Of a stretch of 64,000 nt of DNA, positions 10,354-53,535 are shown piece after piece. Numbering within the stretch: the first letter of the stretch is position 1; each line of letters starts with the position of its first letter. Position numbers and translations under genes: made by a program. The notes under the pieces were generated by a model. It was not told the origin of the DNA, did not search any database, and worked only from the letters and a program-made list of their open reading frames with translations. Source of the DNA: Octopus vulgaris (Eukaryota); NCBI GenBank assembly GCA_951406725.2, contig OX597821.1, forward strand, positions 70,184,001 to 70,248,000. Direction: 5' to 3'.

Positions 10354-10788
10354 AGAAATATTGAATTTCTAAATGTCTCAGAGAGACATGAGCGGTGGTG
10401 GAGCGATATAGTGGTCGTATACTATTGAGTTGACAGTATACGACCACTATATCGCTCCACCACCACTCATGCCTCTCTTAGACATTTAGAAATTCAATAT
10501 TTTCAATTTCGGTGATCAGTAAATAAATTTTACTGAAAATAGGATATATTTGCGAAAAGGTTGCAGTCATCTCAGCGAGCGAGACTGGCTACCCTGGACT
10601 GACGACGAGCAATAGACTCAGAAACATATGTCTTCAGGTGCATCTCCCAGCTGGCGGCGGTGATTGCCTCCCCTTTGCAAATATAAGGACACAGAAAATG
10701 TGTCAAAGCCGACAGGAAACGTCGATGTTTCCTAGGTCGAAATGGTGGTGGTGTAATTCCCTTACGGGACTGTCACATTGAGTTGACA

Positions 10789-10793
<5 letters not shown>
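10352..10793 (+). mobile_element. HHR-bearing 353-nt unit with 17-nt terminal redundancy and a 5' inversion, between two (TA)n tracts
   Basis: attgagttgacagtata at 10424 and 10777. 10352-10423 is the reverse complement of about 10435-10507. Confidence 0.8.
10593..10638 (+). ncRNA. Minimal type-I hammerhead ribozyme, canonical core
   Basis: cctgga-CTGACGA-cgag/caataga/ctca-GAAA-catatg-TC-ttcagg. Confidence 0.85.
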
Positions 10794-10851: not shown

Positions 10852-11352
10852 ATAGTTATCGGCATACTAATATGGCATTCTTATAAAAATAAGAAAAAAG
10901 CTGTCCGCTTATTAGCTCCATGAGGCCATCGCCTTAAGTTAGCTATTTGATACACAAACTGTATCCATATAACCTTCGAACAAGGGAGGTCAGTCGCTCC
11001 ACACTACTTGACCGGCAGCTACAGACGCGTTTCGGAGTATTGCCCCTTTTCAATGCAGCGTAGCCAGCCAGTAGGTGTCGCTTCCGACAATCTCTGTTCG
11101 ATGGTTTTATTTACCTAGTTTCGGTGGAATACATCCACTTGTTTTCAATAATAGAAATATTAAAATAACTAAGTCTCTCTAAAAGAGAACAGCGGCAGCG
11201 TTCCCGGAAAATAATAGTTATCGCCATACTAATATGGCATTCTTATAAAAATAAGAAAAAAGCTGTCCGCTTATTAGCTCCATGAGGCCATCGCCTTAAG
11301 TTAGCTATTTGATACACAAACTGTATCCATATAACCTTCGAACAAGGGAGGT
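10851..11352 (-). mobile_element. 1.4 copies of a 362-nt HHR-bearing unit
   Basis: 10851-10990 is repeated at 11213-11352. The HHR lies between the repeats and the element starts at a (TA)n tract. Confidence 0.8.
11018..11059 (-). ncRNA. Minimal hammerhead ribozyme (UUGAAAA core)
   Basis: Minus strand: gctgca-TTGAAAA-gggg/caata/ctcc-GAAA-cgcg-TC-tgtagc. Confidence 0.75.
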
Positions 11353-28371: not shown

Positions 28372-28451
28372 GGAGTAAACACATAAATGTGAAACAAGGT
28401 GGAAAAAAGAGTACTCAGATACCAGGGGTAGAGTAATATGCTTTATTTCAA

Positions 28452-28489
28452 CTGTCCGACGAACGGGAACGTGAAACTCCGAGTAACAG
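28452..28489 (+). ncRNA. Minimal hammerhead ribozyme (CCGACGA core)
   Basis: ctgt-CCGACGA-acg/ggaa/cgt-GAAA-ctccgag-TA-acag, in a 150-bp insert between (TA)n tracts. Confidence 0.75.
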
Positions 28490-28521
28490 GTTTTGTTGAG
28501 TTTCTGCTGCTTTTATATAAA

Positions 28522-28561
<40 letters not shown>

Positions 28562-28704
28562 CAATTAAAAATGAGGGTGTCTAAGAGACACCAACATGCC
28601 GAAATAGCAGTCGAAACTCTGACTATAAAAACCACGTTAAGTGTTCGTATCGCACCATGAGATAAGACAGAGGGACAAAATATACAAGCAAAAATTATTG
28701 AATA

Positions 28705-28763
28705 ATTCAAGATCCAGGATTTCTGGTTTTGCTTTAAATAAGCTTTACCGTCATCGGTTGAAT
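28705..28763 (-). ncRNA. Minimal hammerhead ribozyme (CCGAUGA core)
   Basis: Minus strand: attcaa-CCGATGA-cggt...acca-GAAA-tcctgga-TC-ttgaat. Confidence 0.7.
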
Positions 28764-28879: not shown

Positions 28880-29107
28880 CGTTCGCATTTTTAGCCTTCG
28901 AATGACGCCAACCCGCTGGCTAAGCGAGCAGGCCAACAGAAGAAAGAGTGGTGAAAGAGTACAGCAGGGATCCCCCCCCTGCCAGAGCCTCGTTGAGCTT
29001 TTAGGTGTTTTCGCTCAATAAACACTCACAACACCCGGTCTGGGAATCGAAACCGCGATCCTACGACCGCGAGTCCGCTGCCCTAACCACTGGGCCATTG
29101 CGCCTCC
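28880..29107 (-). mobile_element. tRNA-derived SINE, same family as 33363
   Basis: Head ggaggcgcaatggcccagtggttagggcagcggactcgcgg...ggtttcgattccc with A and B boxes. Confidence 0.85.
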
Positions 29108-29207: not shown

Positions 29208-30449
29208 AATAATATATATAGATACATATATATATATTGCATACATATATGCATATATGTATACATATGTGTTTTTGCGTATGTATGTATGTATGTGTGT
29301 ATGTACATCAGTCGATTTATAGATTGAATGTGTACTCCACACACAGTCATGCATGTGTTACACTTCTTATACTAAAACTATGTCTAACAAAACTCTGCCT
29401 TTTAAACTTTGGTAACTCCATTTTAAACGCTGCATGTCCATTTTACACCGTGTCTGATATTATAACTTTAATTATTATTATTTTCTTTGTTAAGAAAGTC
29501 TATTTTGAACTGAAAATTATCTGCTTTTGCTCTAATTTTGCACAACAAGTCGTAGCGAATTGCTAAACTTGGGCGATTGTTCCAAAGCTAGAAAACATTT
29601 TTCCCTATTGCTGTCAAGATGAAGAACATCGATGAGTTCTATAAAAGATTTTGCTGTTCTTCGTATATTCTCTTGCCTACGACAATCACCGGTTTTCGAT
29701 GAAAGGGGTCCCAATGCAAATACTTATATACATAAGCACCTTCCATTTCTTTAAAATTAACGAGAAGGTAAGAATTATAGCAGTGCTTGTGCCCGACATG
29801 CCGGTTCACAGGATGCCATCAGAATACATGGATAGGAGGCCTAAAAGGTTCATCGACGTTGATTTGTGAGCGTGGCTTTGAGTCATCTTTGGGACACAAT
29901 GCAAGCAGCAGACGGTCTTCGCAGGGATCTGCAACAATATGAAATCCTTTCGGATGGCCATGGACATTTAGGTCTTGATGACGTCCGGGTATCACAAGTG
30001 TTCAAAGTGTGTATGTGTGTGTGTGTGTATGAGTTGAGTAGCGTTGTGTGTCTGTGGCGCATGTGGATTGTGTGTGTGTGTGTGTTGTGTAGTAAATGGA
30101 AGAGTGTTAGCATATATGTTATCGGTGCTGTCAATGGAATATTTAAGTACGTATGTCTATGATTTTATACGGTGTGTGTGTGTGTTTGTGTATGTGTGTT
30201 TAAGTGTCGACATGTATGTGTAGTATGTGGTCTGAGAATCTGTCTTGTTGCGCGTAGATATGATGTGTGTATGTGGTGAATGAAGACACGATGGTGGTGT
30301 GTGTATGTTTGTTAGTAATGGAAGAGCTTGGTGTGTTTATATATGTATAACATTTATTGCTGTAGATGTGTATGTGTGTGTGTGTGAGTGTGTGTATGTG
30401 TGTGTGTGTGTGAGTGTGTGTATGTGTGTGAGTCAACATATGTAACTGA

Positions 30450-33362: not shown

Positions 33363-33670
33363 GGAGGCGCAATGGCCCAGTGGTTAGGGCAGCGGACTCG
33401 CGGTCAGAGGATCGCGGTTTCGATTCCCAGACCGGGCGTTGTGTGTGTTTATTGAAAGAAAACACCTAAAGCTCCATGAGGCTCCGGCAGGGGGTGGTGG
33501 CGACCCCTGTTGTACTCTTTCGCTTCAACTTTCTTTCACTCTTTCTTCCTGTTTCTTGTCCCCGACTTCCTACGCAACCGCTGAGCCTGAATTCACATTC
33601 ATCCATCCGTCGATGCTCTCGGTGTCGGGGGTTGACGTTCTTTCTCTTCTGCGGGTCTTACGAATAGCAA
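33363..33670 (+). mobile_element. tRNA-derived SINE
   Basis: A-box tggcccagtgg and B-box ggtttcgattccc; matches 28880-29107. Confidence 0.85.
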
Positions 33671-33793
33671 AGGGTGGGTGTTACTGTAGCTTTTAGCCCC
33701 AGGAGGTCATCGTCTCCACCTGGCTTTGGGCACACTTTCTGTACCCTTATGGTATTTGCAAACGGTTTCCCTTTATCGAAAACCGGTGATTGC

Positions 33794-33837
33794 CGTACGC
33801 GAAGACAGGCAAATACCTAGAAACTGCAGTCCGTGCA
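33794..33837 (+). ncRNA. HHR of unit 1 (1-nt core deletion)
   Basis: cgtacg-CGAAGA-cagg/caaata/ccta-GAAA-ctgcag-TC-cgtgc. Confidence 0.55.
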
Positions 33838-34146
33838 TATCACTTAGGTTGACGAGAGAGGGATGAATTCCCTTTGCAAATACCATAAGGGCACAGAAGG
33901 TGTGCCTAAAGCCAGCTGGAGACGATGATCTCCTGTGGTTAAAAGCTACAGTAACACCCACCCTTAGTGGTTAGCCATATTGAGATGGCTAGTATACTTT
34001 ACGTTGTCGTGCAGTTACTCTTTACATCTCGTTCAGAGATTTATTATTGCTTGCAGACAGTTTTTCGAAATCAGTGACGAAAGTTACTGGAAAAACAATA
34101 AATACGTATTTGCAAACGGTCTCCCTTATCGAAAACCGGTGATTGC

Positions 34147-34191
34147 CGTACGTCGAAGACAGGCAAATACCTAGAAACTGCAGTCCGTGCG
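34147..34191 (+). ncRNA. Minimal HHR of unit 2 (UCGAAGA core)
   Basis: cgtacg-TCGAAGA-cagg/caaata/ccta-GAAA-ctgcag-TC-cgtgcg. Confidence 0.75.
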
Positions 34192-34500
34192 TATCACTTA
34201 GGTTGACGAGAGAGGGATAACTTCCCTTTGCAAATACCATAAGGGCACAGAAAGTGTGCCTAAAGCCAGCTGGAGACGATGATCTCCTTGGGCTAAAAGC
34301 TACAGTAACACCCATCCTTAGTGGTTAGCCATATTGAGATGGCAAGTATACTTTACGTTGTCGTGCAATTACTGTTTACATCTCGTTCAGAGATTTATTA
34401 TTGCTTGCAGACAGTTTTTCGAAATCAGTGACGAAAGTTACTGGAAAAACAATAAATACGTATTTGCAAACGGTCTCCCTTATCGAAAACCGGTGATTGC

Positions 34501-34545
34501 CGTACGTCGAAGACAGGCAAATACCTAGAAACTGCAGTCCGTGCG
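34501..34545 (+). ncRNA. Minimal HHR of unit 3
   Basis: Identical to 34147-34191, exactly 354 bp downstream. Confidence 0.75.
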
Positions 34546-34783
34546 TATCACTGAGGTTGACGAGGGAGGGAGGACCTCCCTTTGCAAATACCATAAGAGC
34601 ACAGAAAGTGTGTCTAAAGCCAGCTGGAGACGATGATCTCCTGTGGTTAAAAGCTACAGTAACACACACCCTTAGTGGTTAGCCATATTGAGATGGCTAG
34701 TATACTTTACGTTGTCGTGCAGTTACTTTTTACATCTCGTTCAGAGATTTATTATTGCTATATATATATATATATATATATAT

Positions 34784-34912
34784 ACGTCATCTGTTCAAAA
34801 GACATCTGACAAACGGTCTTCTTCTTAGCTTCAAAAATGGTGAGATAAATTATTATTTCGACCAAGAAACCCTGGGTAGTTGGGTTTATCAGGATTTGTG
34901 GTTTTTATAATA

Positions 34913-34953
<41 letters not shown>

Positions 34954-34973
34954 ATTTGTGGTTTTTATATATA

Positions 34974-35017
<44 letters not shown>

Positions 35018-35146
35018 TATTATAAAAACCACAAATCCTGATAAACCCAACTACCCAGGGTTTCTTGGTCGAAATAATAATTTATCTCACCATTTTTGAA
35101 GCTAAGAAGAAGACCGTTTGTTAGATGTCTTTTGAACAGATGACGT
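34784..35146. repeat. ~130-bp inverted repeat around (TA)n tracts
   Basis: 34784-34915 versus 35013-35146, near-identical; a short third piece lies at 34951-34975. Confidence 0.9.
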
Positions 35147-35931
35147 TTAAACAAAAAGACACGGCTAAGGAAGAATACAAGAAGAAAATCACAAGGGAGA
35201 TAACCAACGCCACTATACTTCGGTGTCAAGCAGACGTAAACAAGGTGTTAATGGTTTCCTAAATGTCCGGTGATCCACTTTTAAATTCCGACGCGATGTT
35301 TCTCTTGAAATGCGCACTGCAGAAAACCTCATTGCCGGAATTTATGTATTATTATTTCGACCAGGAAATCTTGTCTAGCTCTGTATAAAGAGATTTGTGC
35401 TTTTTTGTATAACATTATCGTTTGATATTATAACATCATCACCCTTACATTCTTAGCTGATCGTGCGAAAAACTGGCAGAATTTTGTTTATTACTTAATT
35501 ATGGCACCAAAATAAATTATTTATAAAACTTACATCAAAACTTTATTGAAAGTTTCTAATATGATCCCTGTTTGTATCCCTGCAAATTTCAATCCTATCT
35601 TTAGCGTTGCGAAACACATTTTGAAGCATATCAGGAGTTATCTCCTACACTGCTAACCGAATGTATTTTTTTAAGTTCAAATAAAATATTGCTTCATCTT
35701 GGGAATAGATGAAGAGAAAATGATTGCAACCAAATTGAAAAAAGCTGTCGTTGACAAAGGAGCAGGATCCAACAGGAATGAAAATAAAATTATAAAAAAG
35801 AATTAAAAAATTATAAGCAATATTAAATATTTATACACTTTTTAACACATAAACATTATAAACATAAGCAAAAGTAAACTTTTATAAAAGTTGTCCGATT
35901 TCACTGAAATATTTAATTCTGGGATACCTTG

Positions 35932-51264: not shown

Positions 51265-51454
51265 GCTTTACTAGAAATAGGAGTTAAAACGATTCAAAAA
51301 CCACAGTTGTCACTGATACACACTAGAGAGTTCGAGAGAAAATGCAAATAGTAAAAACTAACTTACATGGTTTTTGAGCCGTCTTGGATTTCTAGCAAAG
51401 CTGTGCTTGCTACCCATTTATATTATTATCATTTATTAATAAAAATTAGGCTTA

Positions 51455-51605
51455 CGAGAAAGTGATGGCCTCCCTTTGCAAATACCATAAGGGCACAGAT
51501 AGTGTGCCTAAAGCCAGTTGGAGACGATGATCTCCTGAGGCTAAAAAGCTACAGTAACACCCCCCTTTGTGGTTAGCCATATTGAGATGGCTATTATACT
51601 TTACA
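51455..51605 (+). mobile_element. Dispersed partial copy of the 354-bp unit
   Basis: ccctttgcaaataccataagggcacag...ggttagccatattgagatggcta matches about 33870-34000. Confidence 0.85.
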
Positions 51606-53098: not shown

Positions 53099-53181
53099 AT
53101 TGGTAGAAATGGCAAGACAACTAAAGAATGAAAGAGACCTCGATATTATGTAAATAGAGGAATTTATTATTCGGTAGCCTT

Positions 53182-53241
53182 GATAAAACTCCGAGTTTCG
53201 GATGTCGGGGTAGAAACTCACGCCACACCTCTTCAGTTATC
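53182..53241 (-). ncRNA. Family-B hammerhead ribozyme, inverted copy
   Basis: Left arm of the hairpin 53166-53371. Confidence 0.7.
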
Positions 53242-53294
53242 GGCCCATCGAAAAGAATTGCTATGCATTTTCATAGCATTTTTTACGATGGACC

Positions 53295-53354
53295 GATAAC
53301 TGAAGAGATGACGGCGTGGGTTCCGCCCCGACATCCGAAACTCGGAGTTTTATC
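53295..53354 (+). ncRNA. Family-B hammerhead ribozyme
   Basis: gataa-CTGAAGA-gatg..ggcg/tgggttc/cgcc..catcc-GAAA-ctcggag-TT-ttatc. Confidence 0.75.
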
Positions 53355-53535
53355 ATGGATACCGAATAATTGTCACATATTATATATATATATATATATA
53401 TTACCATTTTGCCTAAATAATGGAACTTCAGATACAATATCCATGCATATCTCACGTCTATTTTCATTTTTTCTCTCCATTCTCTATTTCAAATCTTATC
53501 TAGAATTTACTATTGCTTAACCATCTTCTCACACC

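Follow-up and report, generated by a model that had tools for sequence, protein, structure and literature searches.

The locus raises the question of what kind of element has left almost three head-to-tail copies of a 354-nt unit, each copy with a hammerhead motif, beside an inverted piece of the same unit in the genome of Octopus vulgaris, and by which enzyme they were written. The window is the whole stretch of 64,000 nt that was analysed, and positions refer to it unless unit positions are named. We are fairly confident that this locus is a decayed insertion belonging to a family of hammerhead retrozymes, likely non-autonomous, which carries the insertion footprint of Penelope-like elements (PLEs), and that it was likely written by a PLE enzyme in trans.

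Anatomy of the array

A tandem-repeat scan places the head-to-tail array at 33752–34759 on the plus strand, with a period of 354, 2.8 copies (about 2.85 units), 95% matches and a score of 1860. The units are 354, 354, and 300 nt long and show a pairwise identity of 95.0–96.3%, in agreement with the first-pass annotation, which had described about 2.8 highly similar 354-nt units. Repeat finding over the whole window gave an output dominated by microsatellites, and the genome searched (2.8 Gb, 227 contigs) is also microsatellite-rich. Unit positions are numbered from 34106. The array and its borders are composed as follows:

33670..33765, minus strand: inverted left arm, 96 nt, corresponding to unit positions 119–214 with 93% identity
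33752..34105, plus strand: unit 1, 354 nt
34106..34459, plus strand: unit 2, 354 nt, with a candidate transcription start at 34128
34460..34759, plus strand: unit 3, stopping at unit position 300, the second fixed 3′ end of the family (the "tail" end)
34759..34784, no strand: (TA)13, the likely insertion target

The inverted arm is joined to the array via the self-complementary overlap GTATTTGCAAA. An inverted piece of 90 bp, joined through a microhomology, had been proposed for the 5′ end and is found here with a length of 96 nt; likewise the 3′ end runs into (TA)n as claimed. The right side of the copy, with its end at position 300 leading into (TA)13, fits the PLE footprint described below. 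On the left, the arm ends about 36 nt before the usual end at about 250 and no target duplication was seen; it appears that the native left end of this insertion has been lost. Since the differences among the three units are private alleles and each unit departs by 3–4% from the family majority, we judge that the insertion is not recent. The array is best regarded as an ageing, decayed copy of a large dispersed family.

A dispersed and non-coding family

Searching the genome with the unit yielded 3473 candidates, the best 40 of which were scored. Genome-wide exact-motif matches numbered 726 for a 19-mer across the cut site, 754 for the hammerhead core pattern and 1514 for a 22-mer at unit positions 210–231, compared with 0–1 for the controls. 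These counts agree with the earlier proposal of a mobile dispersed family instead of a local satellite. Both relatives that had been pointed out in the window, at 51455 (plus) and at about 29670–29723 (minus), were recovered:

51446..51604, plus strand: 5′-truncated family copy, unit positions 93–251, 89% identity, without the hammerhead core, stopping at the first fixed 3′ end
29678..29723, minus strand: family fragment, unit positions 1–45, 83% identity

Most insertions of the family are 1–2 units long, and one array has 10 units which are 98.8% alike on average. A 119-nt sub-repeat of unit positions 201–296 occurs seven times, without a hammerhead, in L136–L142 (G000:C1:11168322-11169262).

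No reading frame of at least 120 aa covers the array, the longest stop-free stretch in the concatemer is 100 codons, and unit length varies among copies by non-multiples of three. As expected of retrozymes, the copies are dispersed, have target duplications longer than 4 bp and a GC content of 0.43–0.46 (below 50%), and consist of tandem units in the range of about 150–450 bp with a type I hammerhead motif each, the cores in the window being mutated and without a match in Rfam. Thus, the family is likely a non-LTR retrozyme that is non-coding and non-autonomous.

Paired ends and the PLE footprint

Insertion ends were mapped for the insertions behind the first 100 of the 1514 matches of the 22-mer, all on contig C1, a sample that is independent of the cut site. 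The 22-mer anchor is held by 76 of the 90 mapped insertions, and it cannot sample ends below about position 232 on the anchored arm. The 3′ ends of the 124 outer arms fall at 243–258 in 62 cases and at 292–310 in 53, with 9 elsewhere; fixed 3′ ends at about 250 or about 300 are therefore found in 115 of 124 arms. Two diverging arms are present in 48 of the 76 insertions. Among these, 40 combine an end at about 250 with one at about 300, one has two ends at about 250, none has two at about 300 and 7 are off-class (p = 1.5e-11 against independent choice). Where one insertion has two arms, these carry the same letter at 557 of 601 diagnostic sites, as opposed to a mean fraction of 0.58 for shuffled pairs. 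Target duplications of 10–14 nt flank 17 of the 48 two-armed insertions, and 17 more are uninformative on account of simple repeats. Within 25 nt of an end (TA)5 occurs in 30 of 76 insertions, against a background of 7.8%.

An inverted truncated copy, a tail at one end and a bias for (TA)n have been described as traits of PLEs (PMC8557442), and an anole PLE was reported to extend both strands in vitro, with two internal starts of reverse transcription defining the tail (PMC11167929). The octopus family has the two fixed 3′ ends and hence a tail, the inverted truncated arm, and the AT-rich or (TA)n target. These insertions carry the PLE footprint, which likely comes from copying by a PLE-type enzyme. 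We read the two fixed ends as priming from both ends of the cut DNA on one type of RNA. At the window locus this pairing cannot be checked, as the left end is missing.

Two earlier expectations have to be revised. The first-pass annotation anticipated permuted starts and regarded ends shared by all copies as evidence against its reading; with 115 of 124 arms ending at two sites free permutation is not supported, and the ends are indeed fixed as far as the 3′ side is concerned. It also attributed the inversion to a single template switch, whereas paired ends and target duplications are better explained by priming from two DNA ends.

The hammerhead motif

Predicted GUC cleavage sites had been placed after 33831, 34185, and 34539. 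In fact GAAACTGCAGTC closes at exactly these three positions, with a spacing of 354 nt, and one hammerhead motif is found in each unit as claimed, the motif of unit 1 having a core deletion:

33786..33843, plus strand: hammerhead motif 1, catalytic core minus one base, predicted cut after 33831, predicted inactive
34139..34197, plus strand: type I hammerhead motif 2, core UCGAAGA (U3.G8, C4), predicted cut after 34185
34493..34551, plus strand: hammerhead motif 3, core UCGAAGA, predicted cut after 34539

In the family the motif belongs to type I: stem I is split, stem II has 3–4 bp and stem III is palindromic; motif 2 has the same split stem I and palindromic stem III together with C.A at the base of stem II. 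Rfam reports no hammerhead at gathering score in the window and none among the 38 matches up to E=10 in 33600–35300, so the ribozyme assignment is based on motif and covariation. Pairing in the helices amounts to 93–98% over 301 distinct pieces of the family, and the paired positions covary: core 3–8 is CG in 96, TA in 34 and TG in 8 of 144, a pair in stem II is AT in 121 and GC in 20 of 150, and one in stem I is TA in 115 and CG in 16 of 139, where the counts are sequences from few subfamilies and not independent events. These compensatory core changes (C3-G8/U3-A8) imply, at the level of sequence, selection on the hammerhead fold. U3-A8 is a published hammerhead variant (PMC4209133).

Core quality varies within the family. 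A hand tally of the first 100 of the 754 core matches gave 46 CTGANGA, 24 CCGANGA, 17 TTGACAA, one TCGAAGA and 12 others; about a quarter of the copies thus have C4. At the base of stem II, C.A is found in 102 of 148 family pieces and G-C in 35, and most C3-G8 copies carry the C.A (102 of 148). Many family members may therefore cut poorly. The non-canonical core UCGAAGA which had been noted for the array applies to units 2 and 3; unit 1 lacks one core base, and with one case in the 100 sampled the core is not a trait of the family. In its context UCGAAGA occurs 16 times genome-wide, two of them in the window array; 10 of the 14 other loci were read, and among these its subfamily background is mixed. 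A distinct UCGAAGA lineage was rejected for this reason, and the core is recurrent decay of the CCGAAGA subfamily by mutation rather than a family trait.

A canonical type I hammerhead has a Watson–Crick pair 3–8, U4, and a paired 10.1–11.1. Units 2 and 3 have U3.G8, C4, and C.A instead, and unit 1 departs from the canonical form by its core deletion. We assume that U3.G8 (C3U) in the window cores lowers hammerhead activity; a literature search for the effect of C3U on the hammerhead found nothing. Given the C3U cores and the deletion in unit 1, the hammerheads at the window locus are probably weak or dead and the locus is probably a poor or dead template.

The unit is predicted to fold far better than shuffled sequences (z −5.2), and circular folds, each compared with 25 shuffles, give z −4.5 to −7.9 for five units. 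For unit 2 taken by itself the hammerhead fold, at −6.2 kcal/mol, is not the most stable one, the minimum-energy fold having −14.0 kcal/mol. For the palindromic stem III a self-duplex of −11.1 kcal/mol is predicted, which is in line with the suggestion that the ctgcag palindromes of neighbouring units could form a dimeric hammerhead.

Sequencing runs that may be RNA ("RNA?"), none of them recorded as such, were examined as assembled contigs, which are not assignable to the window locus and cannot distinguish a circle junction from a tandem junction. Contigs of four such runs cover the family. One contig of run X5 (depth 12.9) starts with adapter-like sequence that is attached precisely at the predicted cut; by its letters it belongs with a sister subfamily and not with the window locus. 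No such end was seen in four further "RNA?" runs, whose contigs read through the cut site. We take the adapter-joined end as a weak hint which concerns the family only.

A candidate promoter and the template

Two copies of a short box precede the same position of successive units:

34070..34075, plus strand: ATCAGT box, 58 nt upstream of ATCG at 34128, candidate snRNA-type promoter element
34424..34429, plus strand: second ATCAGT box, 58 nt upstream of ATCG at 34482

In 17 of 20 U2 snRNA loci ATCAGT lies at −57 to −61, against a background of about 0.1%. In units 2 and 3 it lies at −58 of unit position 23, a match which comprises 6 nt and the spacing and which suggests an snRNA-type transcription start at unit position 23. 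An octamer-like motif was rejected as distal promoter element, being present within 400 nt in 1 of 20 U2 loci and forming part of an RNA stem in the unit.

The arms at other loci give a hint which molecule is copied. Fifty of the 124 arms cross the cleavage site and 19 exceed one unit, and none of the 47 arms that reach the cleavage site stops there. Nor do 5′ ends pile up at position 23. Among the 67 non-LINE copies reaching position 30, 4 of 63 have their end at 17–23, and 50 continue well upstream of position 23. Ends piled up at either place were thus rejected (0/47 and 4/63). Because no arm stops at the cleavage site, a cleaved linear monomer is not the usual template, and circles or multimers would fit. 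The earlier proposal of rolling reverse transcription is supported in so far as templates extend across the cleavage site. That a circle more easily explains why arrays do not shrink is an argument and not evidence.

The most serious competitor keeps the family and the PLE enzyme and assumes an uncleaved linear multimer as template, with the hammerhead as a passenger and the circle unneeded. Hammerhead mutations do not block insertion by the anole PLE in vitro, where uncut RNA is the main substrate (PMC11167929), and among nine dimers of predicted Xenopus retrozymes only one showed cleavage in vitro (bioRxiv 2026.07.22.740005). The CCGANGA cores among the sampled copies, the majority of C.A stem II bases and the contigs reading through the cut site point the same way. 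However, linear transcripts starting within the unit would become shorter by one unit in each generation, and their copies would have 5′ ends at position 23, whereas 50 of 67 copies run well past it and an array of 10 closely similar units exists. In addition, the compensatory core changes argue against a passenger hammerhead, as does the single adapter-joined contig end against an uncleaved template. We therefore consider the linear multimer unlikely, though by no means negligible. Alternatively, a shorter copy could have been inserted first and then expanded into the trimer by local tandem duplication. Units 2 and 3 have the rare C3U in common, and as C3U recurs on different backgrounds elsewhere, its presence in both calls for a single template molecule or for duplication or conversion at a later time. 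Against this, the units differ from each other (4–5%) about as much as from other loci (best 95.6–96.8% identity), and by private changes, so that the repeat should be about as old as the insertion; moreover arms longer than one unit exist at other loci (19 of 124). A later duplication is in our view improbable, and we prefer a trimer that dates from the insertion itself.

A LINE that inserts into the unit and the search for a PLE partner

Coding sequence upstream of some copies belongs to a 5-kb LINE with zf-CCHC, AP endonuclease, RVT_1, and zf-RVT domains, which we take to be Tx1-like by its domain order and by traits typical of the Tx1 clade. Of its 30 best copies 28 are directly followed by the unit family, mostly from position 23; the other two involve a distant hammerhead-like motif and a further LINE start. 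It could therefore be argued that the LINE is the mobilising partner and the unit its 3′ end. On the contrary, full-length LINEs sit inside the unit, and four of them are flanked by a 14-nt duplication of unit positions 23–36. The LINEs are 97–100% alike, whereas the units behind them are 77–93% alike and fall into several subfamilies. Furthermore, a sister LINE, 96% identical to the LINE before the unit in L232, is found at the first base of U2 snRNA genes (L286 and L293, two of the three U2 loci without ATCAGT). A partnership with this LINE has hardly any probability left; the unit appears to be its target and not its cargo. The LINE family is young (L231–L236 and L201–L230, G000:C1:70475500-70484500 and others). 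Two LINE families are stacked at one site in L232/L233, and L119 has a third, different insertion near unit positions 40–50. No LINE is inserted in the window array, and none of the three LINE 5′ ends tested follows the fragment at 29678. In our literature search, with incomplete coverage, no case of a Tx1 LINE that inserts specifically into a hammerhead repeat came to light.

The genome contains stop-free GIY-YIG frames of 781 aa and PLEs with PLE-type hammerheads of their own. Linkage of the unit to a PLE reading frame, which the first-pass annotation had advised to look for, was not found: 59 of the 60 GIY-YIG loci examined are without the unit, the similarity in the remaining one is a separate two-arm insertion, and at none does the repeat flank an RT and GIY-YIG frame, as it would in an autonomous PLE with terminal repeats (pLTRs). 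The unit might still be the pLTR of an autonomous PLE which was not found, the arrays being its truncation products. Retrozymes and pLTRs are close kin in Xenopus (bioRxiv 10.64898/2026.07.22.740005), and the partner searches scored best candidates only. However, the long arms run round into the unit itself and not into a reading frame, the only shared upstream coding sequence is the Tx1-like LINE inserted with a target duplication, and the 59 GIY-YIG loci without the unit speak against a pLTR as well. We hold this reading to be very improbable and retain a non-autonomous unit that is copied in trans. Several candidate partners were rejected individually: the PLE family of the remnant at 1830–2950 and the GIY-YIG loci selected by Pfam have a different 3′ region and hammerhead, the PLE loci L064 and L200 near unit copies are separate insertions into PLE sequence, and the shared upstream coding sequence is the LINE inserted into the unit. 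The remnant itself, on the minus strand of the window, is a broken PLE with a GIY-YIG match and cysteine motifs upstream, and belongs to a large family in the genome. L200 (G000:C2:57963000-57969500) holds a copy of 1.8 units, starting at about unit positions 20–23, inside a partial-tandem PLE.

Other elements in the window

A distant relative of the unit lies at 10540–10790 on the plus strand, with an inverted part at 10370–10490. Its hammerhead reads CUGACGA and shows the same C.A pair where stem II begins, and its stem III is formed by another palindrome. The relative also has an ATCAGT box and is flanked by (TA)n on either side. Hammerhead-like families with matches in other loci are seen at 53166–53400 (an inverted pair, 53236 minus and 53300 plus), at 28430–28760 (motifs 28456 plus and 28757 minus) and at 10870–11350 (motif 11053 minus). 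Adjoining the array, 34785–35145 is an inverted duplication around (TA)n with arms 99% identical, its repeat family showing 77–86% elsewhere; it is either a recent fold-back duplication or an assembly artefact. At 33363–33555 there is a SINE head which by eye is tRNA-like, with copies at 28953–29107 and several loci; ARAGORN finds no tRNA in it. The 114 nt between this head and the inverted arm have no match among the loci compared.

Proposed mechanism

We suggest the following course of events. The snRNA-type promoter inside a unit would drive transcription from position 23 of the unit that follows, which would restrict activity to copies exceeding one unit in length. Successive hammerheads, probably aided by pairing of the stem III palindromes, would release a monomer of about 354 nt, which would then be circularised. 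The PLE protein would cut AT-rich DNA with a stagger of 10–14 nt and prime reverse transcription from both DNA ends, at about unit position 300 on one and at about 250 on the other. The cDNAs would extend back past the cleavage site, in some cases over several units, and their joining through short stretches of complementarity would leave a long tandem arm and an inverted arm.

The complete picture is tentative, and we would sooner expect some part of it to fail than all of it to hold. In this picture the family is a very small circular RNA that brings along an snRNA-type promoter; a PLE protein copies it at the two ends of a single DNA cut and always pairs two different starts on one RNA, subfamilies with weakened cores kept spreading, and a Tx1-like LINE has specialised on the transcription start. 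If true, the family would offer natural, countable material both for the second-strand step of PLE insertion, which is unresolved, and for the question whether the hammerhead matters; the need for cleavage can be tested with the natural core variants CUGANGA, UUGACAA, and CCGANGA, in which the base of stem II is either C.A or G-C. The insertions lend genomic support to the proposed but mostly inferred mobilisation of animal retrozymes by PLEs and quantify how the two PLE start sites are paired.

Comparison with known systems

The type of element is already known in animals; the family itself is new, and the window locus is a decayed copy of it. In a literature search that covered neither most subscription journals nor the repeat databases, repeats of this kind were not encountered for octopus-type genomes. 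Metazoan non-LTR retrozymes have units of 350–390 bp in mussel and 330–350 nt in axolotl (Cervera and de la Pena 2020, PMC7229834). In the part of that work drawn on here they share with the octopus family the tandem units of a few hundred bases with one type I hammerhead each, the GC content below 50% (here 0.43–0.46), the strong predicted self-pairing, the short palindromic stem III, the target duplications longer than 4 bp and a genome that also contains PLEs. The metazoan elements include a case in which stem II has a mismatched base pair at its foot, U.U in HHR_Amex2, where the octopus family has C.A. On the other hand, circles and cleavage were shown for the metazoan elements, whereas for the octopus family both are predicted, and the C.A pair, the C4 variants and the mostly 1–2-unit insertions with two arms set it apart from the retrozymes of that source.

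With EN+ PLEs the family shares the inverted 5′-truncated arm, the tail at one end and the (TA)n or AT-rich targets (Craig et al. 2021, PMC8557442) as well as two internal starts of reverse transcription with extension of both strands (Frangieh et al. 2024, PMC11167929). Unlike these elements the octopus unit has no RT or endonuclease frame, and its tail is about 50 nt long compared with the 30–40 given for EN+ PLEs. The strict pairing of start sites (40 of 48) also contrasts with the in vitro system, for which no difference in start site between the strands is described (PMC11167929).

Retrozymes have been proposed to be non-autonomous derivatives of PLEs (Li, Clavereau and Pollet 2026, bioRxiv 10.64898/2026.07.22.740005). 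We likewise propose a dependence on PLEs; their proposal is based on co-occurrence and pLTR kinship in vertebrates as far as that preprint is drawn on here, whereas ours is based on the anatomy of the insertions, no kin pLTR having been found. Newt satellite 2 is a hammerhead repeat that is cited as using an snRNA-type promoter (PMC2220036), and the octopus unit may resemble it in having such a promoter internally, to judge from one 6-nt box and its spacing. Finally, the LINE behaves like target-specific members of the Tx1 clade, such as Tx1 in Tx1D, Keno in U2, and Tx1-Mar (PMC4494074), in inserting at one site of another repeat and in stacking there, and it differs from the examples given in that source in that its target is a hammerhead repeat.
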